Assembly: GCA_965205845.1 (NCBI GenBank)
Contig: CBDBIG010000003.1
Location: forward strand, 20,453 to 84,452
Source: a bacterium
GTDB taxonomy: Bacteria > SAR324 > JACQKK01
DNA length: 64,000 nucleotides
Reading direction: 5' to 3'
Below are positions 411-64,000 of this stretch, one piece after another. Within the stretch, counting starts at the first letter, position 1, and each line of letters begins with the position of its first letter. The notes beneath the pieces are model-generated. The model ran no database searches. It was given only the letters and a program-made list of their open reading frames with translations, and was not told where the DNA came from. A program made the translations under genes and the position numbers.

Positions 411-1443
411 TCATTCGCTAACTCCTCCCCGCTCGGAATAAGCGGTTTTAAGGTGGCTTAGGCTAAGGGCCTGCCGTGCCCCGTTTGCCGCCAGGCTGGC
501 CAAGCGTAGGGTTTTGGTAACCTCACGCAGTGCGCCGTGGCCGTGACCAATTTTGATTAAAAAGCCAAGGGCTTTCTGCTCGCTTACTCCCCATGCTTGG
601 GCAATGGCCTCTACATCGGCACGGCGGGCTTTTTTGGGGTTTAACACCTTGCCAACGCGGCTAAACAACTGGGCATACTCTGCCGAGCGCGGGCCGCTCA
701 TCCGGGTGTAGACGCTCTCGTTGCCCATGAACACCAGGGCGCAAGCAGTGGCATCGTGCAAAGCGCGTAGGCATTCCAAGGCGGGGCGGGTAAGGTGCTG
801 TGCCTCGTCTATAATCAGCAGGGCGTCTTTTTTTGAGAGATAGGCTGAGAAGCATGCGGTAAACCACATCTCCCCCGCGTCCGTCCGCGCGCTGGCTTGG
901 GGCAAGGGCAAACAAAAGGGCTTTAAGGCAGGCAGGGGCGCTGGCAAAACTGGGCACCATTGTGCACACCCAGCAATTAGGGCGGGTTTGGGCGTAGTGC
1001 TGGGCGGTGATGGTTTTGCCAACCCCTGCGCCACCGCACACCACCGCGATGTCGCGGCTTAGGTGGGCGTAGGCAATGGCCATGCCGATTTGGCGGGCTG
1101 TGGGGGTTTCTATCCAGTCTGCGCCCTTGCTGGGCAAAAAGGCGGTTTGGCAGGCTTGGTCTTCTAGCCATTGGCAAACCTTGGCTTCAAGGGCGGCGTT
1201 ATCGCCCGTGTACTTGCCGTTAAGCCAGCGCGAAAGCGCTGTTGCCCCGCACCCAATCCGCTTGGCCGCATCGGCTTGGGACAGGCACTGCTCGGTTAAG
1301 ACCGTCTGTAGCCCCGACCGCAAAATTGACGCCTGATTGCTCGCCTCGGCGGCGGGCAATGGGGACTTTGCTAACGGGGTGAGTGGTGGCTGATCGCCCT
1401 CTTGCACCACCTGTAAACTAGGGGTTGCCTTTGCTTGGTGCAT
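411..1443 (-). pseudogene. MuB-like AAA+ transposition ATPase, split across two overlapping frames (single frameshift near 900-1030)
   Basis: The N-terminal HTH plus Walker A (VVCGGAGVGKT) lies in ORF 661-1443. Walker B (LLIIDEAQHL) and the C-terminus lie in ORF 411-1034 in another frame. Confidence 0.6.
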
Positions 1444-1541
1444 GTTTTATACTCCATGTATTGTGTTGGTTGGCGGGGCTCTATGCCCCGCGGTTTAAGC
1501 CCTGCTACGGTTCTTGGCTGTCCGTGTGGGGCTTTTTGGTT

Positions 1542-3480: not shown

Positions 3481-3697
3481 GCTGCTGTATCCTTTTTTAT
3501 ACAAACAATTCGCCCGTCTGCGAGTTTCGCCCATCGTTTAGGCCAGATTTCCCAAAGTGGAACTTGAATAATTTTTGTTGCGCAGTTAAATTTTACCGTT
3601 TTTCGCAAATAAGATACTGATGTCTTTGTTTTTGTTAATTTTTTACGCATCTATCAATGGATAGATTGTTGCGTACTTCTTTGCACAGTTTGGAGGG

Positions 3698-3997
3698 TTA
3701 AGTACGCAATGCGGGGGTCGTGATTTCCCTCTTGTTTTTAACGAACTCAAGCTCGTATTTCACGACAACCTTGATTTCTTTGAGAGCGCAATCCAGACAT
3801 GCGGGGGTCGTGATTTCCCTCTTGTTTTTAACGAACCCAAGCTTGTATTCCACGACAGCCTTTGCGGTGGCAGTCTCAAAATTGCCGTTCTCATCTTCAA
3901 AACCCTCGGTAATCTCATAATTGTGGTCCGCATTGGGGAAGAGTTCCTGCCCGCATTTGCAGTGGGTGCTTGTGGTTTGTTGTGTTTTTAGTGCCAT
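3698..3997 (-). CDS. hypothetical small protein between ner and A, with an internal ~24-aa duplication encoded by an imperfect 63-bp direct repeat (3708-3770 and 3795-3857)
   Basis: The ORF is on the same strand as ner and A. The repeat is visible in both DNA and protein. No family was recognised. Confidence 0.3.
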   Translation of the reverse strand: MALKTQQTTSTHCKCGQELFPNADHNYEITEGFEDENGNFETATAKAVVEYKLGFVKNKREITTPACLDCALKEIKVVVKYELEFVKNKREITTPALRT

Positions 3998-4314
3998 TTG
4001 GTAATGCGTCCTTGTTGGTTTGTGTTATGCCCTTGTTTCATCATGCTCCAAGCCAGCCTTTTCTTGCGGATGCCCGTGCCCATTGGCGAACCGTCCGCCT
4101 TGTAACGGCTGGGCCAAATCACCTGCGGGTGCACCCCTATAATATCGGCAATCGTTTTTTCTAAATCCGGCCAGCGCTGGATTTTGACGCGACAGCAAAC
4201 GCAGGCGTAGGAATAGCCTTTTTCTTTTGAAATCCTGGTAAGGGTGTAGCCCTTTTTTGCCAAGGCTGCCCTAACGTCCATCCAATGCCAGTCTTGGGAG
4301 GTATTTGTGTCCAT
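3988..4314 (-). CDS. ner: Ner-like DNA-binding regulator with a ~30-aa C-terminal extension
   Basis: DWHWMDVRAALAKKGYTLTRISKEKGY ... RWPDLEKTIADIIGVHPQVIWPSRY aligns with Mu Ner (DWHRADVIAGLKKRKLSLSALSRQFGY ... HWPKGEQIIANALETKPEVIWPSRY). Confidence 0.8.
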   Translation of the reverse strand: MDTNTSQDWHWMDVRAALAKKGYTLTRISKEKGYSYACVCCRVKIQRWPDLEKTIADIIGVHPQVIWPSRYKADGSPMGTGIRKKRLAWSMMKQGHNTNQQGRITKWH

Positions 4315-4505
4315 GACGCCTTTTTTGATATAATTTTTAGAAAGCGGTTTTTTAAACTAAAAATACAATAGCATTAGCGTTTAAAAAAATGCAATAGCAA
4401 ATTTGTTTTTTTTTTGAGTCCGAGTTCATATTTATTTTTAAAACCACACAAGGCAATGGAAATCCTTTGTTTATAGGGGCTAAGGACGGTTATACAGGTG
4501 AAAAT
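4315..4505. promoter_or_regulatory. divergent ner/c promoter-operator region, AT-rich, with repeated caatagca motifs and the DR0 copy gagtccgagtt (4416-4426)
   Basis: Intergenic region between divergent ner and c. Repeats are 21 bp apart. AGGTGA RBS sits 6 nt upstream of the ATG at 4506. Confidence 0.5.
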
Positions 4506-5609
4506 ATGAGTCCGAGTTTGGGTCCGAGTTCGAGTAGTAAACTCGGACACTTTATCAAAAGGCTCCGTCTGCTTATGCAAGGACAGACTGAAAAGTCTTT
4601 CTCTACCCAAGTAGGACTTCATCAAGCCACATTTAGGCGATATTTAGACGGCAGCGAACCATCCAGGAAATCTTTAATTGCTATTGCAAATGGGGCTAAT
4701 GTCACCATTCAATGGCTGGCCACTGGTGAGGGCCCGATGCGCCCTGTTGAAAGCCTGATGTACCCCGAGGATGAAAGCCTTGAGGAGGATATCGCGCGGA
4801 TGGAGGCGAAAATGGCCCGGGAGGATGCGGAGTCGCTTCGAAAAACGGGCAAGCCTAAGGTTTGGCGGTCGTCCGATGTGGAGATGGATGAAGGGACCGC
4901 GCTGATGATCAGGGTGCATTTAGCGGAAAACAGCCGCCTGAGCAAAGAAAACGAGGCCCTGAGGGCCGCGGGCTTTGGTGGGGGGCCGGCCCCGTCCCTT
5001 GCCTTGGAGCAGGAAATTGCGGAGTTGAAGCGCAGAATTGAAGCGCAACAAAACCTGCTGAACGACACCCATTCGATGAGGAATGATTTCGACGCCAAAA
5101 GGCGGGAAATTGAATTGCTTAAAGAGATGGCCGCGCTTAAGCAACTGGTTAAACAGCCCCCGCCCCCGCCTACCACAAGCGGTATTGCCAACATGACCCT
5201 GCTGGGCTTGGCGGAATGCGGGCTGGTGGGTTGGCAGCAAAAAAGGCCCTTAAGCGTAAAAGCGAACTGCCCCGCCGATATGAACCCCGCAGAAGACTTT
5301 GCGGTGATGGCCACGGGACACAGTCTGTTTTACGCGGGGATTGAGCCTGGCTTTATCTGTTTTTGCGCGCCTAAAAGCGAGGCACAGGTGGGGGATGTGG
5401 TGTTTGTGCTAAAGCCGAACAACCTTGCCAGTTTGGGATTGGTGAAAGAATTAAAGCGCAAAGAAGGGGGAGTAGAATGGCTGGTGCTCCAAAAATGGGA
5501 CGACCCCGACCCCAAAACGGGGGAGCGAAAACCTTACACCCTGAAAGAAAACATGGACGAAATAGAACAGGTTGTGCCCGTGATTTATGTGCAACGCAGG
5601 GCGGTTTAG
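4506..5609 (+). CDS. prophage repressor (CI/Mu c-like): N-terminal HTH_XRE, central coiled-coil, C-terminal S24/LexA-like domain
   Basis: QTEKSFSTQVGLHQATFRRYLDG is an HTH. The C-terminus (VMATGHSLFYAGIEPGF...VGDVVFVLKPNN...LVKELK) has a LexA-like fold. The gene is divergent from ner. The ATG at 4506 has a good RBS; the ORF track starts earlier at a TTG (4467). Confidence 0.7.
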   Translation: MSPSLGPSSSSKLGHFIKRLRLLMQGQTEKSFSTQVGLHQATFRRYLDGSEPSRKSLIAIANGANVTIQWLATGEGPMRPVESLMYPEDESLEEDIARMEAKMAREDAESLRKTGKPKVWRSSDVEMDEGTALMIRVHLAENSRLSKENEALRAAGFGGGPAPSLALEQEIAELKRRIEAQQNLLNDTHSMRNDFDAKRREIELLKEMAALKQLVKQPPPPPTTSGIANMTLLGLAECGLVGWQQKRPLSVKANCPADMNPAEDFAVMATGHSLFYAGIEPGFICFCAPKSEAQVGDVVFVLKPNNLASLGLVKELKRKEGGVEWLVLQKWDDPDPKTGERKPYTLKENMDEIEQVVPVIYVQRRAV

Positions 5610-7640
5610 AAAAAAAGGAGTTTAAAGCTAGATTATTTTTTATTTTTGAGCCAATCGCGCAAAAGCCTTTATAAAACAAGGGCTTGATCCATGAAAAGGG
5701 CGAAAAATTGAGTTTAAAGCTGAGTTTAAAGCTAGAGCACCTAGCTTTAAACTTTTGCGGGGTGGTTTTGGGGGTTTGTGCTAAAGCCGAACAGCCTTGC
5801 CCGTTTGGGATTGGTGAAAGAATTAAAGCGCAAAGAAGGGGGAGTAGAATGGCTGGTGCTCCAAAAATGGGACGACCCCGACCCCAAAACGGGGGAGCGA
5901 AAACCTTACACCCTGAAAGAAAACATGGACGAAATAGAACAGGTTGTGCCCGTGATTTATGTGCAACCCAGGGCGGTTTAAAAAAAAAGGAGTTACAAGC
6001 TAGATTATTTTTTATTTTTAGGCCAACCGCACAAAAGCCTTTATAAAACAAGGGCTTGATCCATAAAAAGGGCGAAAAATTGAGTTACAAGCTGAGTTAC
6101 AAGCTAGAGTGCCCAGCTTGTAACTTTTGCGGGGTGGTTTTGGGGGTTTGTGCTAAAGCCGAACAGCCTTGCCCGTTTGGGATTGGTGAAAGAATGGAGG
6201 CACAAAGAAGGGGGGCAACCTGGCTGGTGCTCCAAAAATGGGACGACCCCAACCCCAAAACGGGCGAGCGAAAACCCTACACCTTGCAAGAGAACATGGA
6301 CGAAATAGAACAGGTTGTGCCCGTGATTTATGTGCAACCCAGGGCGGTTTAAAAAAAAAGGAGTTCACAGTTCAATTATTTTTTATTTTTGAGCCAACCG
6401 CACAAAAGCCTTTATAAAACAAGGGCTTGATCCATAAAAAGGGCGAAAAATTGAGTTCAAAGCTGAGTTCAAAGCTAGAGTGCCTAGCTTTGAACTTTTA
6501 CGGGGTGGTTTTGGGGGTTTGTGCTAAAGCCGAACAGCCTTGCCCGTTTGGGATTGGTGAAAGAATGGAGGCACAAAGAAGGGGGGCAACCTGGCTGGTG
6601 CTCCAAAAATGGGACGACCCCAACCCCAAAACGGGCGAGCGAAAACCCTACACCTTGCAAGAGAACATGGACGAAATAGAACAGGTTGTGCCCGTGATTT
6701 ACGTGCAACCCAGGGCGGTTTAAAAAAAAAGGAGTTCAAAGCTAGATTATTTTTTATTTTTAGGCCAACCGCACAAAAGCCTTTATAAAACAAGGGCTTG
6801 ATCCATGAAAAGGGCGAAAAATTGAGTTCACAGTTCAGTTCACAGTTCGAGCGCTGAACTGTGAACTTTTGCGGGGTGGTTTTGGGGGTTTGTGCTAAAG
6901 CCGAACAACCTTGCCCGTTTGGGATTGGTGAAAGAATGGAGGCGCAAAGAAGGGGGGGCAACCTGGCTGGTGCTCCAAAAATGGGACGACCCCAACCCCA
7001 AAACGGGGGAGCGAAAACCCTACACCTTGCAAGAGAACATGGACGAAATAGAACAGGTTGTGCCCGTGATTTATGTGCAACCCAGGGCGGTTTAAAAAAA
7101 AGGATGTTATTTTTGATTCGTAAAAAACTATTTTTGATATTAACTATGTTGTTGATTTAAAAATAGAAATTTTCTTTACATGGATTCGTAAATAGATTCG
7201 TAAAAAACTATGGAATAACGAATCGTGAAGTGCCGAACTCCGACCTTTTGCGGGGTGGTTTTGGGGGTTTGTGCTAAAGCCGAACAGCCTTGCCCGTTTG
7301 GGACTGGTGAAAGAATGGAGGCGCAAAGAAGGGGGGGCACAATGGCTGGTGCTCCAAAAATGGGACGACCCCGACCCCAAAACGGGGGAGCGAAAACCTT
7401 ACACCTTGCAAGAGAACATGGACGAAATAGAACAGGTTGTGCCCGTGATTTACGTGCAACCCAGGGCGGTTTAAAAAAAAAGGAGTTCAAAGCTAGATTA
7501 TTTTTTATTTTTAGGCCAATCGCGAAAAAGTATTTTCAAAACAAGGGTTTGATCCATGAAAAGGGCGAAAAATTGAGTTCAAAGCTGAGTTCAAAGCTAG
7601 AGCACCTAGCTTTGAACTTTTACGGGGTGGTTTTGGGGGT
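5402..7640. repeat. tandem array of six ~371-bp units (unit starts ~5402, 5775, 6146, 6517, 6888, 7267; last partial unit to 7640). Each unit is a c-leader-like module plus a copy of the last ~200 bp of the c gene
   Basis: The C-terminal 67 codons of c recur in ORFs 5778-5981, 6056-6352, 6427-6723, 6892-7095 and 7271-7474. The intervening ~170 bp is homologous to the c 5' leader. Confidence 0.9.
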
Positions 7641-7759
7641 TTGGTTTTACGCTTCAAACGCATTATTCCTTAGAAATTTCACAAAATCGCTACATTGTTG
7701 GCACCACTTTACGGTCACACTGGGGTAAAAAAACCTAGCGTGGGTAAGGTGGGTGGCAC

Positions 7760-8261: not shown

Positions 8262-8315
8262 GTTGCCCCAGTTGCCCCAGTTGCCCCAGTTGCCCCAGTT
8301 GCCCCAGTTGCGCCA
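8262..8315. repeat. 9-bp microsatellite (GTTGCCCCA) x5 plus one variant copy
   Basis: Direct reading. Encodes (PQL)n or (WGN)n depending on strand. Confidence 0.9.
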
Positions 8316-15116: not shown

Positions 15117-15857
15117 CTACTGTAGTATCGATAAAAAATGGGTTTCTGTGCTGCGAAACACGTTCAGGTCGACGGGCGTTTGAATACCCTTCACGTTTCC
15201 ACGATCAGAAAATTGCCAAAACAGCCAGTTTTTTGGGCGAAGGGGACGCTGCCAGCGGTTACGCATCCAAATACGGGGATGTTGTAAATCGGCAAGGGCG
15301 TAAGCTTGATAAAACTGCCGCGTAACATAGATAATCGGCTTTTGAGCGTAGGTACGCTCAATTTCTTGTATCAAAAAAAGGACCTCTCCTTGCAACACCT
15401 CAATGCCAGGGCGCTTGCTGCAATTGCCTCCAAACTCCAAATCAATCGCGGGCGGCAGCGTGCCTTCTTCGGGTGGGGCCACGGCCAGCAGGTTTTTAAA
15501 TTGGTCGACAGCGGGGCGGCAGAGGGTAAAAAAATGGTAGGCACCGCGCACCAACCCCGCATCTTGGGCACCTTTCCAGTTTTCTACAAAGCGCGGATCA
15601 CGAAAATCACCCCCTTCGGTGGCTTTAATAAACACGAAGCGAAATTCGTCCGCGTCAATTTTTGTCCAGTCAATACGCCCTTGGTGATGGGAGACGTCCA
15701 GCCCCCAAAGATCAAATTCTCTGCGGGTGGGGTGGTTTAAACGTAACCAGTCTTGCTGATAGGCAGTATATAAGCCCAGCAATGCGCTGCCCAAAAGGAG
15801 GGTGATCCCCAAAAGCAAGCACGTTTTTTGGCGAGACAAAACAGGCATAAAGCACAC
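15117..15857 (-). CDS. GH25 lysozyme (muramidase) with N-terminal signal anchor
   Basis: GLDVSHHQGRIDWTKI ... FVFIKATEGGDFRDPRF ... GAYHFF. Confidence 0.75.
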   Translation of the reverse strand: MCFMPVLSRQKTCLLLGITLLLGSALLGLYTAYQQDWLRLNHPTRREFDLWGLDVSHHQGRIDWTKIDADEFRFVFIKATEGGDFRDPRFVENWKGAQDAGLVRGAYHFFTLCRPAVDQFKNLLAVAPPEEGTLPPAIDLEFGGNCSKRPGIEVLQGEVLFLIQEIERTYAQKPIIYVTRQFYQAYALADLQHPRIWMRNRWQRPLRPKNWLFWQFSDRGNVKGIQTPVDLNVFRSTETHFLSILQ

Positions 15858-15886
15858 GTTTGTAAGATAAAAAAGAAGGGGCTATG

Positions 15887-16160
15887 AAGGCGTCGTTTTA
15901 CGGGCGTGGAACCACAGGCTTTATCCCGTGAACATGCTCAAAAATCTCACCGCCAACGTGGCCCCAAAGATGAAGGCGTCGTTTTACGGGCGTGGAACCA
16001 CAGGCTTTATCCCGTTAACATGCTCAAAAATCTCACCGCCAACGTGGCCCCAAAGATGAAGGCGTCGTTTTGCGGGCATGGAACCACAGGCTTTATCCCG
16101 TTAACATGCTCAAAAATCTCACCGCCAACGTGGCCCCAAAGATGAAGGCGTCGTTTTACA
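15887..16160. repeat. 86-bp tandem repeat, 3.3 copies
   Basis: Units 15887-15972, 15973-16058, 16059-16144, then a partial copy. Confidence 0.9.
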
Positions 16161-16361
16161 AGGCAACGCGACCTTGGCACGAAATCGGGCTACCAAGAGA
16201 TACCTTCGGTGTGGATCACGAGGCAGGGTATGTTTGCGCAACACGCTAAAAACTTGTCTAAAAGCGGATGGCACGCCATGCCTAAAAATATAGCATAAGA
16301 AAGTCTGCGCCTATTTTAACGGACAGCAAGCGACAACACCATTTTTGAGCGTGTCAGTAAG

Positions 16362-16772
16362 TGGAGGCGGCGGGAGTCGAACCCGCGTCCTAATGGTGGT
16401 GAACTAAACGTTACTACAGGCTTAGCGACGTTTTGCGTTTAACAATGAGGATGTTGAAGCCGTCGCGGTCTCACCTCATGCGAGTTTGCCCTAGGAATTC
16501 GCCCAAAACACCAGCAAACCACTGTGCATAGGCTAGCACCATAAATGACACGGAAAAAGCGCTTATCGTGCGTGGGCACCTCCGCGGTCCAGCCCCTAAA
16601 TTAATAGGGGTGTAAGCACTCTGCTAAACCGCAATTAAGCGGCGAGGGCTACTGGAGCGTAGTTGCTGTTATTGGCATCTACGTGTGTGAACGATTTTTT
16701 ACGTGGCCCTTCGCTCAACCACGGCCTGCTCGCCTAATATCTCCTTCCACAGTCGAATGCCATAACGCCCCC
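16362..16772 (-). ncRNA. ssrA: tmRNA (ssrA), standard one-piece; predicted tag peptide ANNSNYAPVALAA
   Basis: 5' GGGGGCG...GCATTCGAC and 3' GGACGCGGGTTCGACTCCCGCCGCCTCCA form a tRNA-Ala-like acceptor with G3:U70. The 3' domain aligns with E. coli ssrA. The resume frame is GCC AAT AAC AGC AAC TAC GCT CCA GTA GCC CTC GCC GCT TAA. Confidence 0.8.
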
Positions 16773-21850: not shown

Positions 21851-21890
21851 CGTTGCAAAAAGTGCCGTGTAAAAATAATCCCCTTGTGCC

Positions 21891-22345
21891 CCCTAGCGCG
21901 GTGTTTGTTTGGGTTTGCTGCCAAATGCATTTAAATGGTTTTGTAAAAATTGCCCCACGCGGCGCCATTTGGGAGCGATTTTGGGCGTACGTTGCAGCGC
22001 ATTTAACGCCTGGTTTGCAACGGGCACATTACCCGCTTGCACCCTAGCGCGGTGTTTGTTTGGGTTTGCTGCCAAATGCATTTAAATGGTTTTGTAAAAA
22101 TTGCCCCGCGCGGCGCCATTTGGGAGCGATTTTGGGCGTACGTTGCAGCGCATTTAACGCCTGGTTTGCAACGGGCACATTACCCGCTTGCACCCTAGCG
22201 CGGTGTTTGTTTGGGTTTGCTGCCAAATGCATTTAAATGGTTTTGTAAAAATTGCCCCGCGCGGCGCCATTTGGGAGCGACTTTGGACGCACGTTGCAGC
22301 GCATTTAACGCCTGGTTTGCAACGGGCACATTGCCCGCTTGCACC
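21891..22345. repeat. 151-bp x3 tandem duplication of the 3' end of the TPR gene (ORF on minus strand)
   Basis: ORFs 21893-22081 and 22044-22232 encode identical 62-aa peptides equal to the C-terminus of 22195-23403. The unit contains the palindrome GCATTTAAATGC. Confidence 0.9.
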
Positions 22346-23403: not shown

Positions 23404-23809
23404 GGGGGTTGGTGTATCTCAAAAAAACATTTCGCACGGATGTGCGTTGTTAAACAAAGGCGTATGTGCGCTCCGCTGCACAGTGCTGAGGTTTAAGATG
23501 GGATGGTGCCCATTGCAAAACCGCGCATCCATACCCTTTTTTCTGGGCACGGGCACTTATTTTTTTAGCACTTTAACCCATGGCTGCTATAATACCCACT
23601 TGAGCCTGCCTTTTGACAAAAAATTAAACGCGTCCATACCCCTGGGTTTATGGAAATGGGCGAACCCTTGCGCCGACCAAGATTGTGTTGGCGCACTTTT
23701 TGCCTTACTGCTTGCCATGGTAGCGTGCCTGTTTAAGGCATGACACATGACCCGTTTTTGGTTACTATTTGGTATATATCCACACGCCCTTGTGGAAAAA
23801 CAAGACTTC

Positions 23810-24406
23810 ATGGAAAATAACCCTACGAAAATGGCTATTCTCTCTCGTTACCCCGAAAGTCAGAAAAAAGATTACATCTTTGTACTTGCCCATGCTTTTA
23901 GCGAGTTTGAGGAAAGGCCAGCGGAAGAATGTGCGCTGTTTAACGATTGGGTATTAAATTTCAGGATTCCACAGGAATACCACAGCCAACTCAATCAAAT
24001 CATTGATGGCGATTGGTTGGATAAACAATACACAAAGCGCATTGAGCGCTTGGTGATGCACCGCTTGGCGGATCCCTTGTTGCTCGATTCAATGGCGTTG
24101 GCCATGTCCGATGGGGTGTTGATGGACGATGAAGTGGATGCCTTGCGCAACTTGGCAACAGCAATGAACGTGTCTTCGGTGCATTTTAACATTTATCTTG
24201 AGCTCATTCACTCCGCTTACCAGGCCGCCTACCTCGAAAACCCAGAACCTTTGTTTGAGCACAACATCGAGCAAGCCTTAAACTTGCTGTGTCAACGAAG
24301 GGTGGTTCTCTTTGAACACGCAAAACTTTGTACCTGCTCAAAAGACTACAATGGAAAAATTAAGCAGCACTGGCTACGAATGAGCCAGCACAAAAGGGCT
24401 CGCTAA
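23810..24406 (+). CDS. TerB-like domain protein
   Basis: MSDGVLMDDEVDALRNLATAMNVS is TerB-like. Start probably MENNPTK rather than the ORF start. Confidence 0.4.
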   Translation: MENNPTKMAILSRYPESQKKDYIFVLAHAFSEFEERPAEECALFNDWVLNFRIPQEYHSQLNQIIDGDWLDKQYTKRIERLVMHRLADPLLLDSMALAMSDGVLMDDEVDALRNLATAMNVSSVHFNIYLELIHSAYQAAYLENPEPLFEHNIEQALNLLCQRRVVLFEHAKLCTCSKDYNGKIKQHWLRMSQHKRAR

Positions 24407-24628
24407 GCAAGAAAGGCTAGGAAACCTTTTGCGCCCATTGCAAAACGAGGCTCATTGGAAAGTAAGCGTGGCTCTCTTTGAACACGCAAAACTTTGTACC
24501 TGCTCAAAAGACTACAATGGAAAAATTAAGCAGCACTGGCTACGAATGAGCCAGCACAAAAGGGCTCGCTAAGCAAGAAAGGCTAGGAAACCTTTTGCGC
24601 CCATTGCAAAACGAGGCTCATTGGAAGG
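24304..24628. repeat. ~160-bp x2 tandem duplication covering the stop codon of the TerB-like gene
   Basis: 24304-24462 and 24470-24628 are nearly identical. Confidence 0.9.
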
Positions 24629-24667
24629 TAATCAAAGCATGTCAGTCGGTTTTTTTGGGGTAGACCA

Positions 24668-27705: not shown

Positions 27706-27804
27706 TGGCGGAGATGCGTGGGAATCGAACCCACCCAAAGCGGTATCAGCGCCCTGCACACGGGTTTGAAGCCCGGGAAGCCCACCAGTGACTCATCCAT
27801 CTCC
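27706..27804 (-). tRNA. selC: tRNA with anticodon UCA and a ~26-nt variable arm; candidate tRNA-Sec (selC) or UGA-reading tRNA-Ser derivative
   Basis: Anticodon loop CUUCAAA is identical to the E. coli selC loop. Discriminator G73, encoded CCA, 99 nt. The D-arm is not canonical 6/4. Confidence 0.55.
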
Positions 27805-46073: not shown

Positions 46074-46220
46074 TAACGCTTTGCCATGGTGGGTTTTGGG
46101 CGAGCCATGTGTTGGGCTTCCTTAACGCTTTGCCATGGGGGGTTTTGGGCGAGCCATGTGTTGGGCTTCCTTAACGCTTTGCCATGGGGGGTTTTGGGCG
46201 AGCCATGCCTGGGCTTCCTT
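46074..46220. repeat. ~49-bp x3 tandem repeat covering the 3' end and stop codon of the cca gene
   Basis: Units 46074-46122, 46123-46171, 46172-46220. Confidence 0.9.
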
Positions 46221-47642
46221 AACTGTCGAAAAACAACCTTCTATTTGTGCATTAAGCGCGTGGCGCACGCAATCTCCCATCTTGGGGCCGGGGGACATGC
46301 CTAGTGCCAAAAAATGCCGCCCAAGCAGCAGGGGCTGTAAGGGTTTTTGCCACACACCCAATTGTTTGGCCAAGGTCTCAAGGCGCAATGCCCCGACAGC
46401 AGGGGTATTAGGGTACTTGCTTTGGTGAATGGCCGCGGATAAAAAAGCCAAATGCTGGCAGCCACGCACCTGGGCCAACTGGCGCACACAGGCAGCAGCT
46501 GCGGCCTCATCTAACTGCTCAAACCCCTGTATGCTCTGCCATTGGGCCAAAAGTTCAAGTATCCATTGCTTGATGTTCACCTGATGGGTCACCCGATTGA
46601 GTAAGGATTCAACATGCACCAATGGTGTTGGCTTTGCCTTTGGAGTGTTGGGGTGGTTGGCTAACATGGGTTCTAGCAGTGCGCTTAAACATAGGGTCAC
46701 CCACGTATCTTCATCGAGCAAGGCAGGGCTGGTGGAGGCAGGGGTTTGGCTAGTTTCACCCTTTTCAAGTCCGCCTTTGCGCAAAATGGCGCACATGGCA
46801 TCGACCGCCTTCAAGGCCTGCCGCCATGCGGGGCATGGTGCCTGCTGGACATACTTTGCGGGGGTGCGAAAGGCTGGTATGCAGGTGGCATGGTTGGTCT
46901 TCGTCGTGTTGGTTTGCAAGCTCCTGCCGGAATACAGTGCTTGAAGTTCAGGAAGGTAGGGCAATACGCCCGCAGTGTGCATGTAGCGCAAGCCTTGAGA
47001 GGGCTGGGGAGATCGCAAAAACAGTTTGCGTATTTCCTCCCAAATACGCTCGCGAGGCAGTTCGCTCAAATCTTGCTGGCGACACATGGCAAGGGTGTTG
47101 GGATCGATTTTGAAATGAAAGCGCCCTGCAAACTGCAGACCCCTTAGTACCCGCAAAGGATCCTCGGAAAATGCGGGACCAACGTGTCGCAACACGCGTC
47201 TGGTTAAGTGTTTTTGTCCCTGGTGAGGGTCAAGCAACGCGCCCTCTAAAAATGCGTAGCCTATGGCATTTATGGTGAAATCCCTGCGTGAAGCCGCGGT
47301 GAAAAAATCCATGTCTGGGTCGCAATCTATCCAAAAGCCCTTGTGTCCCTTGCCCATGTTGCGTTCTTTACGCGGAACGCTAAAGTCGTATTCGTGATGG
47401 TTGCCCATGAACTTAAGCACCCCAAAGCTGCGCCCCACGCTATGCACTCGCCCAAAGGGGGTTAGAGTGTGTTTGAGCGTTTGCAAAGAAAGGTTAAAAA
47501 CCTCCACATCCCAATCTTTATCGACCCTCATGCCCAGCAGTTGATTGCGCACGCTGCCGCCCACCAACACGGGGTTCCCCCCCGCTTGGGCAATGGCCTG
47601 GCCAATTGTCATCAATTCCTTGGGTACGTGCAACTTAGGCAT
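46122..47642 (-). CDS. cca: tRNA nucleotidyltransferase (CCA-adding) / poly(A) polymerase family
   Basis: GGSVRNQLLG...D.D nucleotidyltransferase head. Confidence 0.65.
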   Translation of the reverse strand: MPKLHVPKELMTIGQAIAQAGGNPVLVGGSVRNQLLGMRVDKDWDVEVFNLSLQTLKHTLTPFGRVHSVGRSFGVLKFMGNHHEYDFSVPRKERNMGKGHKGFWIDCDPDMDFFTAASRRDFTINAIGYAFLEGALLDPHQGQKHLTRRVLRHVGPAFSEDPLRVLRGLQFAGRFHFKIDPNTLAMCRQQDLSELPRERIWEEIRKLFLRSPQPSQGLRYMHTAGVLPYLPELQALYSGRSLQTNTTKTNHATCIPAFRTPAKYVQQAPCPAWRQALKAVDAMCAILRKGGLEKGETSQTPASTSPALLDEDTWVTLCLSALLEPMLANHPNTPKAKPTPLVHVESLLNRVTHQVNIKQWILELLAQWQSIQGFEQLDEAAAAACVRQLAQVRGCQHLAFLSAAIHQSKYPNTPAVGALRLETLAKQLGVWQKPLQPLLLGRHFLALGMSPGPKMGDCVRHALNAQIEGCFSTVKEAQAWLAQNPPWQSVKEAQHMARPKPPMAKR

Positions 47643-56512: not shown

Positions 56513-57986
56513 GCGGAGCAATTTTTTCGAACTTGCATCCTATTGAAGGGGGCGTACTCAAAGCAGATGAAATGGGTATTTGGAATCGTGGCCGTGATGC
56601 TCATTACGCATCTCATTTTTAAGCGTGCAGGGCGCAAGTAACCTCCTTTGTTTGTGCGTGAACACTCGCGGATTTGGACGCGCTTTACGCCGCCGCTGCG
56701 GCCCATGGTTTTGCAATGGTTTTGCAAGAGACCCACAACACACTAAAACGCTTTGGGATCCGCGGAGCAGGTGCAACCCAAGGGCTAGCGCAACAAACCG
56801 CTCTCGGATGAAGATAGGCACCGCAACGATAAAATCGCGCGCATTCGTGCTGGAGGTGAACGCCCCTTTGCCACCTACAAAAACCGCTACGCTCTCGCCC
56901 AAACATGATTTATGGAATGGGCTAAAAACATAACTGCCCCCGGCATCGCTGCGAATAGCCTACAACATACGCGAAAGGGGCCAGATTCCTGACGCTCTAT
57001 GGTCTGTCAGACCTCAGATTATGCTGCATCGATGTGTCCGATAGTCCCGCAATCGCCTTGAAACCGCCCATCGAATTCACCACAATCCGCCCTCAAAATC
57101 GCAAGTAACTGCAAACCAGTTATCCCACAAGGGTCATCTCCAAGCCCTACTAAGGTGAGTATTGCGAAAATGTTACGATTAAGAAAGCTTAAGCGAGTAA
57201 ACACAATGCGCTGCCATCGAAATCGTGTAGACAAAATACCCTTAAACTTAACGCACAACCATGCGCAGCAAAGCCAGAACATCCCACACAAGCACCACGG
57301 CTGCCATCAGCCAAAGACACCTCAGCATCCACGTGCCAAGCTGTGGCCATTGGCGTCTTATCCACTTGCGAAAAGCGAAGGTTAACAGCAAGAGCAACAG
57401 TGCCGCTTCCCATAAGCCCAATCCAAACATGGTTAGCGTTTTGCCTAGAAGGAATAGGAGGAATTTGTGGTGGTCATTGCAGAAGGGATTTGGTAACGCT
57501 TGAGCGAATCAGCAGCCCTCTTTGCACAGATTGCATGCCAAGAGGCTCGAGAACTCGTTGCACCCCGTTTTTTTGCGCTTGGTGCACCATACATAGCACG
57601 AGGCAGGCCTTTTTGTCATGGAGGCGAATGGCTATGTGGCACCCATGCTACCAAAGCCCAGCTTAGGCGATTGCGGGTAAAAAGCGCAAGCGTTGGCGTC
57701 CAATTGAGGTGGCCAAGTGGTGGTTCCTTCCTTTTTCCAAACGGGCTTCCCGTAAAGGCCCTGCTCGATACGCATTTTTTCAAAAGGCAAATGGGCGTTG
57801 TTAGAAGTTCCATCCGTTTTCCATAACCCAAGGGAACAAAGCCATGAGGGTTTGCAAGGTTCGTTTTGTTGTCATGCTTACAACTTCCACGAAGCGTCCA
57901 TGGGGTAACCTGTGCTAGCATGTGGGGGGCGGAGGTTTATAGGTGGTGGGTGAGATCAATTTTTTAGTTTTTTCTTAGCATAAAAG

Positions 57987-59738
57987 GTGTATTCGGTTGC
58001 CATGATGAATGGATGGATGGTTCAAAACCCCCTGGGCATAAAACCCATGGTTTGGTTATTGGTGTTGGGCATTGCTTGCATTGGCGGGGAAACACTCGGG
58101 CTGGCACAAGACACGGGTGCCCCTCCCCAAAGGGAGGTAGGGGAGGATAAAACCGATGCACATGGCAGTGCAAAAGCCAAAAAAGGCGGGGCGATGCGCT
58201 TGCGCCTTCCTGTTTCCCCCCCCTTGTTGCACCCCTTAAATGCCACGGATGCCTACGGTAACCGCGTGCTCGATAGCATTTATGAGTCCTTGGCAGATAC
58301 CGATGTGGATACCTTACGCTTTATTCCATTGTTGGCCTCACGTTGGAAAAAATCCCCCGATAGCCTGACGTATACCTTTTATTTAAACCCCAAAGCACGT
58401 TGGCACGATGGCAAGCCCGTCACCGCTGGCGATGTGGCCTTTAGCTTTGACGTACTCTTTGATTCCAATTTAAAGACCCGTGCCAAGTGGCAGTCGTATT
58501 ACAGCAATATCGCCTCGGTAAGGGTTATTGATACCTATACGGTCCGTTTTAGGGTGAAAAGGGATCATTTTCGAAATTTTATCAACCTTGCCACCTTGCG
58601 TATTGTGCCCAAACACTACTTTAAGCCAAACGAGCCCAACCAAACCGTTTTGGCCAAAAAGCCCGTGGGCAGTGGGCCCTACCGCTTTGTGTCCTGGAAA
58701 AAGGGGAGCCGGATTACCCTCAAACGCCATGCCGAGTATTGGGGCAAAAACCTCCCCCAAAACCGAGGGCGCTATAACCTGCGCCTGCTGCTTTACAAGG
58801 TGGTAACCAATAACAAGGTGGCCTTGCAATCGCTGCAAAAAGGCGAACTGGATCTGCTGGGCTTAACCCCCGAACAATGGAAAAAAGAAACCAAGAACCC
58901 AAAAATCTACGGCCAAGGTCCCATTACCAGTGCCCCCGTGGTCAAATTGAACGTGCAAAACCTCTCGCCACGGAGTTACAGCTACGTGGGTTGGAATCTT
59001 GCCTCCCCGTTGTTTAACGACCGCCGCGTACGCTTGGCTTTAAGCCATTTGTTCGATCGCAAAACCTTTATACAAAAGCTGTTTCATGGCTTGCGCGAGG
59101 AGGCAGTGGGCCCTTTTGCGTCCAATTCGCGCTATCGCTCGCCCAAAATTAAACCCATTCCGTTCTCGATTGCCGAGGCAGGGAGATTGTTTAAAGAGGC
59201 TGGTTGGACGGATAGCGATCAAGATGGTGTGCTTGATAAGAAGGGCCAAGCGATGCGCTTTACCGTGCTTACAGCCGACCCCGAAACAGGGGTAAAAATG
59301 CTAACCCTTGCCAAGCAGTCGATGCAAAAAGCGGGGGTCGATTTGCGCATTAAGGTGGTGGATTGGGCTGCTTTGCTAAAACTGATTGATGACCTCCGCT
59401 TTGATGCCGTGATGCTGGGTTGGTCCCGCAGTGCCTGGCCTGATCCCACCGCGTTATGGCACTCCAAAAGTGCGGTGGCGGGGGGGCTCAACTTGGTGCG
59501 TTACAAAAACCCCGAGGTCGATAATCTGATTGCAAAGGGGGTCAAATCGATACCCGACAAGCAACGGGTGGTGCTTTTTAGGCGGATACACGAGATCCTT
59601 TTTCGTGATCAACCCTATACTTTTTTGCTCGAAAGTGGGCATCAACTCACTGCCTATCGCAACCGTTACCATCAGGTCAAGCCTTGGTTTCACTACAGCC
59701 TTGGGAGCGATTATTGGTGGGAAAAATCCGTTAAATGA
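57987..59738 (+). CDS. ABC transporter substrate-binding protein, family 5 (OppA/DppA-like)
   Basis: Signal peptide; SBP_bac_5-like. Confidence 0.7.
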   Translation: MYSVAMMNGWMVQNPLGIKPMVWLLVLGIACIGGETLGLAQDTGAPPQREVGEDKTDAHGSAKAKKGGAMRLRLPVSPPLLHPLNATDAYGNRVLDSIYESLADTDVDTLRFIPLLASRWKKSPDSLTYTFYLNPKARWHDGKPVTAGDVAFSFDVLFDSNLKTRAKWQSYYSNIASVRVIDTYTVRFRVKRDHFRNFINLATLRIVPKHYFKPNEPNQTVLAKKPVGSGPYRFVSWKKGSRITLKRHAEYWGKNLPQNRGRYNLRLLLYKVVTNNKVALQSLQKGELDLLGLTPEQWKKETKNPKIYGQGPITSAPVVKLNVQNLSPRSYSYVGWNLASPLFNDRRVRLALSHLFDRKTFIQKLFHGLREEAVGPFASNSRYRSPKIKPIPFSIAEAGRLFKEAGWTDSDQDGVLDKKGQAMRFTVLTADPETGVKMLTLAKQSMQKAGVDLRIKVVDWAALLKLIDDLRFDAVMLGWSRSAWPDPTALWHSKSAVAGGLNLVRYKNPEVDNLIAKGVKSIPDKQRVVLFRRIHEILFRDQPYTFLLESGHQLTAYRNRYHQVKPWFHYSLGSDYWWEKSVK

Positions 59739-60812
59739 TAACGCCAGCCACACAGCCTTGGGAGCGATTATTGGTGGGGAAAAGGTGTTAAATAATAACG
59801 CCAGCCCACAGCCTTGGGAGGGTTTGTTGGCGGGAAAAGGCGTTAAATGATAACGCCAGCCACACAGCCTTGGGAGCGATTATTGGTGGGGAAAAGGCGT
59901 TAAATGATAACGCCAGCCTAACAGCCTTGGGAGCGATTGTTGGCGGGAAAAGGCGTTAAATGATAACGCCAGCCACACAGCCTTGGGAGCGATTATTGGT
60001 GGGAAAAATCCGTTAAATGATAACGCCAGCCACACAGCCTTGGGAGCGATTATTGGTGGGAAAAATCCGTTAAATGATAACGCCAGCCACACAGCCTTGG
60101 GAGGGATTGTTGGCGGGAAAAAGGTGTTAAATGATAACGCCAGCCCACAGCCTTGGGAGGGTTTGTTGGCGGGAAAAAGGCGTTAAATGATAACGCCAGC
60201 CCACAGCCTTGGGAGGGATTGTTGGCGGGAAAAAGCCGTCAAATGATAACGCCAGCCACACAGCCTTGGGAGGGATTGTTGGCGGGAAAAAGGCGTTAAA
60301 TGATAACGCCAGCCCACAGCCTTGGGAGGGATTGTTGGCGGGAAAAAGCCGTCAAATGATAACGCCAGCCACACAGCCTTGGGAGGGATTGTTGGCGGGA
60401 AAAAGCCGTCAAATGATAACGCCAGCCACACAGCCTTGGGAGGGATTGTTGGTGGGGAAAAGGCGTTAAATGATAACGCCAGCCTAACAGCCTTGGGAGG
60501 GATTGTTGGTGGGAAAAATCCGTTAAATGATAACGCCAGCCACACAGCCTTGGGAGGGATTGTTGGCGGGAAAAAGGTGTTAAATGATAACGCCAGCCCA
60601 CAGCCTTGGGAGGGTTTGTTGGCGGGGAAAAGGCGTTAAATGATAACGCCAGCCCACAGCCTTGGGAGGGATTGTTGGCGGGAAAAAGCCGTCAAATGAT
60701 AACGCCAGCCACACAGCCTTGGGAGGGATTGTTGGCGGGGAAAAGGCGTTAAATGATAACGCCAGCCACACAGCCTTGGGAGGGATTGTTGGCGGGGAAA
60801 AGGCGTTAAATA
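59695..60812. repeat. ~19 tandem copies of a 57-61-bp unit derived from the last codons, stop and downstream hairpin of the SBP gene
   Basis: Each unit carries GGCGTTA-aatga-TAACGCC (7-bp stem) and the TGA of the gene end. Confidence 0.9.
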
Positions 60813-60891
60813 ATGAGGTCACTCAAGCGGACGGCAAAAAGGCATTGAACTCCTTTTTCAATTTGCGCAAAAATAAGGGCCTTGCCTTTGT

Positions 60892-61923
60892 ATGTTCTCT
60901 TACATTGTAAAGCGTATTATGGCGATGGTGCCAACCTTTGTAGGCATTACGCTGATGACGTTTTTGGTGATTAACCTGGCGCCCGGGGGGCCTGTTGAGC
61001 AATTTTTGCGCGAGGTGCGCTTTGGGCAGGTACAAACGGGCAGTACAACGGGCTCCGGAAGCGGCATCGAAAATGCGGGGGTTACGGGGGACACCTTGCG
61101 CGAGCTCAAAGCCCAGTTTGGCTACGACAAACCTGTGCTAGAGCGCTACTTTATTTGGCTGGGTAATTTGCTGCGCCTCGACTTTGGGCGCTCTTTTGTG
61201 CACGATGTGCCTGCCATTGAGGTAATTGCCAGCAAATTTCCCGTGTCGCTCCAGTTTGGGATTACCTCTTTTTTACTAACCTACCTGGTGTGTATTCCCT
61301 TGGGTGTGTGGAAGGCCGTGCACGATGGGCAATGGGAGGATACGAGCACCTCGGCCCTTGTGTTTACAGGCTATGCGGTCTCGCCTTTAATGCTGGGCAT
61401 TGTGCTGATTGTGGTGTTTGGGGGTGGCGTGTTCGACTGGTTTCCCATTTCGGGCAGTGTATCTGACCTCCACGATGAACTAGGCTTTTTCGCACGCATT
61501 CAAGATCGCATTCACCATGCTATTTTGCCTTTAGGCTGCTATTTGGCGGGTAACTTCGCGGCGCTCACCTTGCTGATGAAAAATGCCTTTTTAGAAGAGA
61601 TGAACAAACCTTATGCCATTACAGCCATTGCCAAAGGCCTGCCCATGCGCACCGTGCGCTATTCCCATGTACTACGCAATGCCATGATCCCCATTGCCAC
61701 GGGGTTGGGGAGTTTTTTGGGGATTTTTTTTGCGGGGAATTTGTTTATCGAACAAATTTTTTCCCTCGATGGCATGGGGCTGCTGTTTTATCAAGCCTTG
61801 CTGGCCCGAGACTATCCCATTTTGCTGGGATCATTGAGCCTCATCAGCATGATACTGATGCTAGGGAACCTGATCTCCGACATGCTCTATGTGATCCTCG
61901 ATCCACGGATCGACTTTGATTAA
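60892..61923 (+). CDS. ABC transporter permease (OppB/DppB/YejB-like)
   Basis: N-terminal MFSYIVKRI...PGGPVEQF. 6-TM BPD permease. Confidence 0.75.
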   Translation: MFSYIVKRIMAMVPTFVGITLMTFLVINLAPGGPVEQFLREVRFGQVQTGSTTGSGSGIENAGVTGDTLRELKAQFGYDKPVLERYFIWLGNLLRLDFGRSFVHDVPAIEVIASKFPVSLQFGITSFLLTYLVCIPLGVWKAVHDGQWEDTSTSALVFTGYAVSPLMLGIVLIVVFGGGVFDWFPISGSVSDLHDELGFFARIQDRIHHAILPLGCYLAGNFAALTLLMKNAFLEEMNKPYAITAIAKGLPMRTVRYSHVLRNAMIPIATGLGSFLGIFFAGNLFIEQIFSLDGMGLLFYQALLARDYPILLGSLSLISMILMLGNLISDMLYVILDPRIDFD

Positions 61924-61976
61924 AGGGGTTGACCCAGATAACCCCCTAAAAAACACTTAATCCATTGTTTTGGCTG

Positions 61977-62420
61977 CGGTAATTGGACCGCAGGGGGTGC
62001 TAGATTGTTCAAACGCCTCCCGCACTCCCTTCAAAAGGTGCCAGAAGAATCGCGGAGGCCCTTGCGCTTTAGCGCCACACACATCGGCGGCGACTTTTGC
62101 CGTCTTTTGCCGTCTATCCTCGCAAATAAAATGCGCAATTCAAACGCCCTTGTTTGTATTGAACTTAAAAGGTGCCCCTTTTCCCACATACCGACTTGGG
62201 CGGTAATTGGACCGCAGGGGGTGCTAGATTGTTCAAACGCCTCCCGCACTCCCTTCAAAAGGTGCCAGAAGAATCGCGGAGGCCCTTGCGCTTTAGCGCC
62301 ACACACATCGGCGGCGACTTTTGCCGTCTTTTGCCGTCTATCCTCGCAAATAAAATGCGCAATTCAAACGCCCTTGTTTGTATTGAACTTAAAAGGTGCC
62401 CCTTTTCCCACATACCAACC
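61977..62420. repeat. 222-bp x2 tandem repeat in the convergent intergenic region between the permease and prfB
   Basis: 61977-62198 and 62199-62420. Confidence 0.9.
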
Positions 62421-62453
62421 CTGATAGCCCCCTTTTTGGGTTCTCTTAAAGAG

Positions 62454-63555
62454 TTAGCCCCAAACTTTTTGGAGGAGGGCTTGCTCAATAAGGGGTGTCA
62501 GGTTGCCATCGAGCACACCGATCGCATTGCCAATCTCAAGACCCGTGCGATGGTCTTTTACCATTTGGTAGGGGTGGAGCACGTAGCTCCGAATTTGGCT
62601 TCCCCAGGCAATTTGTTGCTTGCTGGCATTGCGTTTTTCTTTTTCAGCATCCAGTTCTTGTTTGCGGTGTTGATAGAGTTTGGCCTTAAGTACCTTCATG
62701 GCAGCAGCACGGTTTTTGTGCTGGGAGCGCTCACCTTGGCATTGTACCACAATCCCTGTGGGCAGATGGGTAATCCGAATGGCAGAATCCGTGGTGTTGA
62801 TGTGTTGACCGCCTGCCCCTTGGGCGCGAAAAGTGTCTATCCTCAACTCGGAATCGAGGATGTCAATTTGAATGTCATCCTCCACATCTGGATGCACAAA
62901 CACCGAAGCAAAGGAGGTATGGCGGCGCTTGTTGGTATCAAAAGGTGAAATGCGCACCAGGCGATGCACGCCGTTTTCGACCTTTAAGCGCCCAAAGGCG
63001 TAGTTCCCTTCCACTTGAAATGTAACCGACTTGACGCCCGTTTCTTCGCCAGGCTGCAAATCAAGGAGCTTCATTTTAAGCCCTTGTTCCTCGGTCCATC
63101 GTTGGTACATCCGCATAAGCATGGCTGCCCAATCCAAGGATTCGGTGCCACCTGCCCCCGAATGAATCAAAATGATGGCACTGCATTCATCGTGTTCTTC
63201 GCTCAGCATATTGCGTATTTTTAAAGCGTGCAAAGCGGCTTCCAAACGCGCACTAATCGCTTGCATTTCGGCATGCAAATCAGGGTCGACCTCCTCTTCC
63301 ACCAAGCTAAGACCCGCTTCTAAATCCTCGATCAAAGCGATGCAGGTCGCCCATTTTGTCAACAAAACCTGCATACTACGCGTTTCTCGTAGTACCTTAG
63401 CCTGCTCTTGGGCATCACGCTGCCAAAAATCCTCTTTGTTAGCCTCTGCTTGCAGGGCTTCTAACCTGGCTTGCTGGCTTGCTGGGTCAAAGATACTCCT
63501 TAAAAGTGGCAAGGCGGTGCTTTTGTTCAGGTAATAGATTTTTCCAGTCTTCCAT
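62454..63555 (-). CDS. prfB: peptide chain release factor 2 with programmed +1 frameshift
   Basis: ORF0 MEDWKNLLPEQKHRLATFKEYL ends at CUU UGA C. The +1 frame continues DPASQQARLEAL...; GGQ motif; SPF-type domain. Confidence 0.85.
63486..63500 (-). promoter_or_regulatory. prfB +1 frameshift site: internal SD AGGAGU, 3-nt spacer, CUU UGA C
   Basis: The sequence on the minus strand reads AAGGAGTATCTTTGAC. Confidence 0.85.
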
Positions 63556-64000
63556 TGGGTTCTTATTCGCAAATTTATTCAAAACGTTATCCGTAGCACG
63601 TACATACACATCTACCACAAAACGATTATTATCTCTGGAAAAATTTTTAGCCATTTGGAATGTGCACATGTTTTTTTCACGAATCGCGTACAGGCATCCC
63701 CATCATCGCGCTTGGCTTTGCTTTCTTCACGCAAGCGCAACCCCTTTCAACCCCTTACCTTGAGGATGCCGTTGCTTTGTACGCCGATTTTTATAGCATG
63801 GTGGTAGCAGGGCAAACCATCACGGCATTTTTTTACAAGCAAAAGCCAAGCTCTAAAAAATTTGCCCCGTCTCGGTTTTTTCCCCCGCTGTGCTGCACTA
63901 CAAAACACCCTATAAGCAGCAACTAAAACTGGTGAAATTATTCGGCTTCGGTTTAGCACCACATCGCCCACCCGTGACACGCTTTTGGGGGGCGCAAAGG

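Follow-up and report, generated by a model that had tools for sequence, protein, structure and literature searches.

A probable minisatellite built from the tail of a binding-protein gene in an uncultured bacterial lineage related to SAR324

The DNA analyzed here is a 64,000-nucleotide (nt) stretch of a bacterial genome (the window; GTDB lineage Bacteria; SAR324; JACQKK01; GenBank assembly GCA_965205845.1, contig CBDBIG010000003.1, forward-strand positions 20,453 to 84,452), in which the gene for a solute-binding protein (SBP) and the permease gene that follows it are held apart by roughly 20 head-to-tail copies of the end of the SBP gene itself. Coordinates are counted from the first letter of the window. 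The array is probably a locus-specific bacterial minisatellite, that is, a gene-tail duplication expanded by slippage or unequal exchange, and it is most likely a large instance of this genome's habit of tandem duplication rather than a dedicated regulatory element.

Anatomy of the array and its source

Tandem Repeats Finder (TRF) reports a single array at 59695–60811 with a period of 57 nt, 19.7 copies, 92% matches, 1% indels and a score of 1821, in agreement with the first-pass annotation of this DNA, which had placed ~19 copies between an OppA-like and an OppB-like gene. Unit boundaries were set by splitting the array on TAACGCCAGCC. The SBP open reading frame (ORF), the array and the permease gene are arranged as follows.

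57987–59738, plus strand: SBP gene, family 5, OppA/YejA-like (Pfam PF00496, SBP_bac_5, E 7e-84)
59695–59738, plus strand: copy 0, the last 44 nt of the SBP ORF, comprising the 13 final codons and TGA (…SLGSDYWWEKSVK, then stop)
59739–60812, plus strand: 19 non-coding head-to-tail units of 55–57 nt each, 1074 nt in total
60813–60891, plus strand: unique spacer of 79 nt from the array to the permease start, containing an 11-codon ORF (60813–60848)
60892–61923, plus strand: permease gene, OppB/YejB-like, 343 aa (Pfam PF00528, BPD_transp_1, E 8e-28)

Each unit consists of a 13-nt segment, here called segment B (TAACGCCAGCCAC), followed by a 44-nt copy of the gene tail (ACAGCC…GTTAAATGA), and all 19 units are oriented alike as direct head-to-tail repeats. 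The unit had been equated with the terminus of the SBP gene; the 13 last codons and TGA are indeed reproduced, and segment B has to be added to them. Variation among the units falls in 11 alignment columns and is structured, partly block-wise. A higher-order period of eight units, raised by a 453-nt TRF row, is weak, mean identity being 0.933 at a lag of eight units versus 0.928 at a lag of one. The array combines head-to-tail order, a unit of at least 10 bp, several copies and a local origin in the adjacent gene tail, all of which are attributes of a minisatellite. A 26-nt probe from the unit, allowed up to 3 mismatches, matches the 64-kb window 13 times, every time within the array, with 0.00 matches predicted from shuffles, and the repeat unit was not found in the window outside 59695–60812.

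The C-terminus encoded by copy 0 (…KPWFHYSLGSDYWWEKSVK, ending …GSDYWWEKSVK before the stop codon) aligns with the conserved …KPWYAYxxGxDYWW… end of ∼50 homologues at 55–63% identity, and G573, Y576, W577 and W578 are invariant in an alignment of 23 sequences. Because copy 0 matches this conserved terminus, the gene end is ancestral and served as the template for the array, as was supposed in the first-pass annotation, where the array was described as generated de novo from the gene end. The reverse direction, capture of the gene end by the array, is ruled out by the position of the conserved C-terminus in copy 0. Switching of C-terminal cassettes of the SBP is ruled out as well, since translation of the derived units gives …GRDCWR…, in which Y576 and W578, both invariant, are lost. 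Over 44 nt, u05 and u06 match the gene tail exactly. The gene-type units are grouped within the array's first third, and a derived, better-pairing consensus characterizes the distal units. Units u04, u13 and u14 are mosaics, which shows that variants have been exchanged between copies. The SBP ORF has 583 codons and ends with TGA at 59736–59738; the database protein (P0001, 578 aa) begins at the ATG at 58002, and residues 20–578 are intact relative to homologues of 58–63% identity.

Tandem repeats in the window and the locus in relatives

Nine tandem repeats with a period of at least 40 nt occur in the window, corresponding to 0.141 per kb and 8.2% of the bases. This density is ∼15–20 times that of comparison DNA: related genomic loci totalling 855 kb have 0.0094 per kb, and unrelated metagenome loci totalling 445 kb have 0.0067 per kb. 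Five of the nine repeats, including the array under study, begin within the 3' end of an ORF, take in its stop codon and continue into the downstream spacer.

5402–7643: 371 nt ×6 (87% identity), last ∼67 codons of the S24/LexA-like repressor ORF 4467–5609 and ∼165 nt downstream
21887–22345, minus-strand gene: 151 nt ×3, last ∼48 codons and TAG of a TPR gene with its stop at 22195–22197
24298–24631: 166 nt ×2, tail of the unannotated ORF 23747–24406, upstream of an ABC ATPase gene
46074–46223, minus-strand gene: 49 nt ×3.1, tail of a poly(A) polymerase/CCA-like gene
59695–60811, plus strand: 57 nt ×19.7, tail of the SBP gene

The copies of the 151-, 166- and 49-nt repeats are 96–98% identical, as befits young duplications. 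In the 371-nt repeat the copied tail peptide reads …LKPN…VIYVQ(R/P)RAV before the stop. The simplest reading of the window's repeats is that tandem duplication proceeds at a high rate and its products pass through a survivorship filter, those with an anchor on a gene's 3' end being tolerated because the first copy stays intact.

The SBP–permease locus was compared with that of the relatives L170, L006, L172, L034, L002 and L014. A scan of genome contigs places the closest SBP relatives at 58–63% identity, with none above 63%, and the SBP cluster has one member. For ValS the best non-self match is 57% identical, and the named relatives are SAR324 and Lambdaproteobacteria metagenome-assembled genomes at 51–53%. 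The order of SBP gene and permease gene is conserved among relatives, the permease aligns from residue 1 with the permeases encoded 3' of their SBP genes, and L172 is syntenic with the window over BamA, N6_N4 methylase, SBP and permease. The SBP–permease spacer measures 19 nt in L170, 22 nt in L006 and 74 nt in L172, none of which contains an array. A tandem array between the two genes was found in none of the relatives examined, the spacers of L002, L034 and L014 included, and because it is absent from all of them the array is, on this comparison, a lineage-specific expansion. In the window the SBP stop and the permease start are 1153 nt apart, the array accounting for 1074 nt and unique sequence for 79 nt, and the composition of this gap is 32% G and 20% C. 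Possible homology between segment B and the L172 spacer was considered and is not significant, 318 of 2000 shuffles being equal or better.

Two of the relatives, whose SBPs are 62–63% identical to the one studied here, have spacers of ∼250 nt (7576–7826 in L034 and 7588–7846 in L002) full of strong, perfect GC-rich hairpins of unrelated sequence, with folding z scores of -2.8 and -3.6, respectively. Beyond these loci, a 17-mer spanning the unit junction gave 80 single matches in metagenome contigs, with a longest extension of 24 nt, and 9 single matches in viral contigs; both sets were judged to be chance. Rfam covariance models gave no match in 59500–62500 at E ≤ 1 and none at the gathering score.

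Downstream of the permease gene the locus continues with the following features.

61976–62416, plus strand: perfect (100%) tandem duplication of 224 nt ×2, between the permease gene and prfB
62454–63572, minus strand: prfB (peptide chain release factor 2; Pfam PCRF and RF-1 domains), which bounds the locus

A terminator-like hairpin followed by a T-run is present in each 224-nt copy (62085–62102 and 62309–62326), and these hairpins probably mark the end of the two-gene unit. The duplication itself is of very recent date or else reflects a problem of assembly. The layout of one SBP gene with a single permease gene, as first annotated, is real, and the window contains no second permease gene. 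In most relatives a second permease gene follows directly after the first, but not in L034, L172 or the window; decay of an operon is ruled out as the reason, L034 and L172 having the same two-gene layout. The statement that prfB comes next is accurate in that prfB adjoins the permease side, but prfB is convergent on the minus strand and the 224-nt duplication intervenes. A scan of 59500–62600 for sigma-70-like promoters found none, including none internal to the operon for the permease gene, although this type of scan may not suit the organism. Upstream, the ∼1.47-kb interval between valS and the SBP gene (56513–57986) contains only short ORFs without a Pfam match.

Elsewhere in the window, an 86-nt ×3.2 repeat (15884–16159) lies between a tmRNA gene (16359–16772, minus strand) and a GH25 lysozyme-family gene (15117–15857, minus strand) and begins 27 nt upstream of the start codon of the latter. 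A microsatellite of six GTTGCCCCA units at 8262–8315 encodes WGN or PQL repeats in overlapping ORFs. Over the whole window, A and T tracts of 6–7 nt are 10–12 times more frequent than the mononucleotide expectation. The left end of a Mu-like prophage occupies 661–5609, and the 371-nt array is situated at the presumed prophage end.

661–1443, minus strand: MuB-like AAA/HTH ORF
1542–2699, minus strand: MuA-type transposase with DDE_2 and Mu-transpos_C domains
3988–4314, minus strand: Ner-like HTH_35 ORF
4467–5609, plus strand: S24 repressor-like ORF

A tRNA-Sec gene is present at 27706–27804, and the organism therefore uses selenocysteine.

Hairpins at the unit junctions

The first-pass annotation held that every junction between units folds as GGCGTTA-AATGA-TAACGCC. 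The left arm of the junction occurs in four forms, with the following predicted stabilities.

GGCGTTA-AATGA-TAACGCC, 8 of 19 junctions: perfect 7-bp stem, -8.1 kcal/mol
GGTGTTA, 3 of 19 junctions: one G·U pair, -6.2 kcal/mol
TCCGTTA, 4 of 19 junctions: gene-type, 5 bp, -2.1 kcal/mol
GCCGTCA, 4 of 19 junctions: broken, -0.9 kcal/mol, pairing instead with the upstream UUGGCGG

The perfect hairpin is thus present at 8 of the 19 junctions and its G·U form at three, but the remaining 8 are weak or broken. The quasi-palindrome of the unit, TAACGCC…/…GGCGTTA, is extended by GCCA/UGGC and by ACAGCCUU/AGGG·UUGU. As single-stranded DNA the core hairpin has a predicted energy of -7.0 to -7.4 kcal/mol on either strand and a z of ∼-4.2 to -4.5 in a 31-nt context. 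Stable folding of the array, also part of the annotation, holds in a weaker form: the array only moderately beats dinucleotide shuffles, with an overall z of -1.4 to -2.8. By span, one or two units have a z of -1.4 to -2.1 and five real units a z of -2.7, and four consensus units compared with arrays of shuffled units give -2.1 on the plus strand and -2.8 on the minus strand. Counting of pairs across 20 aligned units revealed no covariation, the observed score being equal to that of shuffles.

Five substitutions separate the gene tail from the derived consensus (C>G, A>G, T>C and TC>GG), and every one either adds a pair to the invariant arm TAACGCCAGCCACACAGCC or makes an existing pair stronger. 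Jointly they lower the ensemble energy by 18.6 kcal/mol. In a test that was devised after the sequences had been seen and that covers one lineage, 0.27% of random substitution sets and 1.8% of type-matched sets were as good as the real five (p ∼0.003–0.02). The minimum free energy per unit falls from -8.6 kcal/mol for the gene type to -18.0 kcal/mol for the derived type, and for four units it falls from -51 to -87 kcal/mol. The two changes that define the GCCGTCA variant improve the alternative 7-bp hairpin with UUGGCGG. The direction of these substitutions is suggestive of structure.

Two further interpretations of the junction motif were examined and discarded. TAACGCC is not enriched as a genome-wide motif that might link the repeats, with 8 occurrences observed and 7.5 expected. 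The junctions were also read as possible integron attC-like sites, but their flanks do not fit RYYYAAC/GTTRRRY pairing and no cassettes are present.

Origin, alternatives and significance

For the mechanism of duplication, and for every effect on expression, we infer the following course of events. A 57-bp segment comprising the last 13 codons and the stop of the SBP gene with 13 nt downstream would have been tandemly duplicated and then expanded to ∼20 copies via slipped-strand mispairing and/or unequal recombination, perhaps driven by the unit's own quasi-palindrome, and exchange from copy to copy would have given rise to the mosaic units. The array may have persisted through the retention of reading frame and stop codon in copy 0, which leaves the SBP protein unaltered. 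Four other gene-tail repeats lie in the same 64 kb, and generic duplication therefore explains the origin of the array without function. The stronger pairing of the derived units may have come from templated (quasi-palindrome) mutation and/or from favoured amplification of hairpin-forming units, possibly with selection. If the SBP and permease genes are co-transcribed, the transcript would contain a gap of 1.15 kb, compared with 19–74 nt in the short-spacer relatives. Such a G-rich, moderately structured gap would uncouple translation of the permease from that of the SBP and may delay degradation of the SBP segment in the 3'-to-5' direction, shifting expression toward the binding protein, and an effect of this kind would be a by-product, whether co-opted or not.

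The variable-number tandem repeats (VNTRs) found between Wolbachia genes and the tandem-repeat-rich genome of Ehrlichia ruminantium are the best match for the mode of origin. In Wolbachia, VNTR-105 as well as VNTR-141 contains hairpins with 9-bp stems that are thought to trigger slippage (PMC3287509), and in Ehrlichia ruminantium tandem repeats in non-coding DNA expand and contract genome-wide (PMC10710844). The array shares with them a non-coding position, a long period (∼100–150 bp in theirs), units that form hairpins and a high surrounding repeat load. It differs in that these VNTRs belong to other phyla and have unrelated sequence, and in that its own unit includes a coding tail with a stop codon and lies within a two-gene transporter unit. 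Judged by its sequence, the array fits among bacterial intergenic minisatellites with internal hairpins, with a copy number known from one genome. Template switching at quasi-palindromes is known to perfect hairpins, RNA hairpins included (PMC7202029, PMC8794818), and the change of TCCGTTA to GGCGTTA, a two-base change to the exact complement of TAACGCC, resembles its product. However, template switching alone does not account for all five substitutions, because the other three that improve pairing are scattered single changes and form no contiguous patch.

Several observations weigh against a neutral minisatellite. The pairing-directed substitutions are equally compatible with selection for RNA structure, which a neutral account does not need, and the test of these substitutions was devised post hoc on a single lineage. 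The spacer hairpins of L034 and L002 hint that structure at the SBP–permease position may be favoured in this family of operons. The repeat load is known from the 64-kb window and the copy number from one genome, whose nearest ValS is 57% identical. Finally, the array terminates in a partial unit (0.7 copy) rather than in segment B, and expansion of a gene-tail duplication gives no account of where the 13-nt segment B came from.

Repetitive extragenic palindromic (REP) elements are imperfect palindromes of ∼35 nt that occur in hundreds of dispersed copies, alternate in bacterial interspersed mosaic elements (BIMEs) and are linked to REP-associated tyrosine transposases (RAYTs). The array was at first likened to these elements, and it does resemble the REP/BIME sequences of malE-malF and hisJ-hisQ in lying between binding-protein and permease genes, in forming stem-loops, and in being able, in principle, to shield upstream mRNA and reduce downstream expression. 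As an assignment of element type the analogy does not hold. The units are 57-nt direct copies of the adjacent gene tail, unique to a single locus and with 7-bp stems; the core palindrome of 7+5+7 nt falls short of a REP and has no alternating orientation; and no Y1/RAYT domain was detected among the ∼45 window ORFs scanned with Pfam, nor is there a RAYT-like gene in the window. On its anatomy the array does not appear to be a member of the REP/BIME class. A separate proposition, which is possible but doubtful, is that the array arose from the gene tail and was then kept by selection as a REP-like intercistronic RNA element, in which stem-loops would block 3'-to-5' exonucleases and/or attenuate read-through and thereby stabilize the SBP mRNA and lower the permease, as at malE-malF and hisJ-hisQ. 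Such a function has been documented for REPs in the his and mal operons (references in PMC3184786). The placement of the array exactly at the SBP–permease junction is consistent with this proposition, as are the far better folding of the derived units, the improved pairing at 5 of 5 fixed substitutions, the alternative hairpin built by the GCCGTCA changes and the unrelated but strong hairpins of the two relatives with ∼250-nt spacers, L034 and L002; read-through is also conceivable, since a G-rich, C-poor plus strand would be a poor substrate for Rho, given its known preference. Nevertheless, the stems are just 7 bp long and fail or are weak at 8 of 19 junctions, the z scores are modest, with no advantage for the plus strand over the minus strand, the units lack covariation, spacers of 19–74 nt suffice in more distant relatives, and with four further gene-tail arrays nearby the origin needs no function. 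It is still plausible that the array affects mRNA stability and the ratio of SBP to permease, because L034 and L002 have unrelated strong hairpins at the same position. A bolder version, unlikely on present evidence, would have the coding tail exapted as a new lineage-specific element of this kind: after chance duplication of the last 57 bp of the SBP gene, selection and template switching would have sharpened the copies and expanded them to ∼20, and the resulting array would now set the ratio of binding protein to permease. A deep-branching lineage related to SAR324/Lambdaproteobacteria that routinely makes gene-tail arrays would then have the raw material for regulators, including new 3'-UTR or intercistronic ones.

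Mycobacterial interspersed repetitive units (MIRUs) occupy ∼40 loci, look mobile, with target duplications, and are coupled to a downstream start codon. The array resembles MIRU-VNTRs in its 57-nt units, which fall within the 40–100 bp of MIRUs, in its tandem intergenic position between co-directional SBP and permease genes, and in the short ORFs of its units, the first of which has an ATG that overlaps the SBP stop (ATGA). It differs in being confined to a single locus, in deriving from the upstream gene, in an ORF chain that ends 43 nt before the permease start and in lacking sequence similarity, and on these grounds it appears not to be a MIRU. In a MIRU-like relay, translationally coupled mini-ORFs would keep the array translated and shield it from polarity, an arrangement for which MIRUs, as tandem intergenic operon units with ORFs that overlap the stop and start codons of the flanking genes, provide the precedent (PMC12548453, PMC3184786). 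Each unit has an ATG inside AAATGA, and the mini-ORFs of 18–19 codons end right before the next ATG (TAA-ATG) or overlap it (ATGA). Although 14 of the 18 ORFs that start with ATG run up to or overlap the following ATG, and the TC-to-GG change creates AAGG 7 nt upstream of the start codon, there are three breaks in the chain (unit 1, which has no ATG, and two CCTAACAG units with 5-codon ORFs), the final ORF stops short of the permease ATG, the junction hairpin has the ATG in its loop and the putative Shine-Dalgarno sequence in its stem, and reinitiation over 19 steps would presumably entail large losses. Open frames are, moreover, probably automatic when a stop-free coding tail with TAAATGA is copied, and a relay is improbable.

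Read on the minus strand, the junctions present a hairpin followed by T4-5 (GGCGTTATCATTTAACGCC TTTTT), a terminator scan flags two minus-strand units while the remaining units have T4, and the 7-5-7 palindromes, at a spacing of 57 bp, are well defined as single-stranded DNA on both strands. The array might accordingly be imagined as a series of terminators against antisense transcription from the prfB side, or as operators for a dimeric DNA-binding protein. Both roles are very improbable, as the T-run is the mere complement of inherited Glu-Lys codons (GAA AAA), the end of prfB is 1.6 kb away with its own downstream region, no candidate binding protein is at hand and the palindrome is intact in just 8 of 19 units. 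It is also highly unlikely that misassembly of repetitive reads produced the copy number or the array as a whole. Short reads cannot span 1.1 kb of 57-nt units and the perfect 224-nt duplication adjoins the locus, but assemblers do not invent 11 variable columns that are partly block-wise and graded from gene-type to derived units; older arrays in the window have diverged too (87–98%), and the contig is 877 kb long.

If the array is a neutral minisatellite, it would serve mainly as a marker, a hypervariable locus for strain typing, and as a warning in assembly and annotation, with spurious ORFs of 67–120 aa crossing it. It would also be evidence for an unusually high rate of tandem duplication in an uncultured lineage. 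In a compact genome the duplications that survive are often those with an anchor at the 3' end of a gene, because the gene is left intact by the first copy. If, on the other hand, the structured copies affect the fate of the mRNA, the locus would preserve a rare, base-by-base trace of the birth of a REP-like intercistronic element, in which the steps from coding tail to duplication to pairing-improving substitutions could be followed. The array itself is probably ordinary in mechanism; what is noteworthy is the traceable path from a coding tail to a hairpin repeat, and how unusually dense gene-tail arrays are in a lineage that is uncultured and deep-branching.

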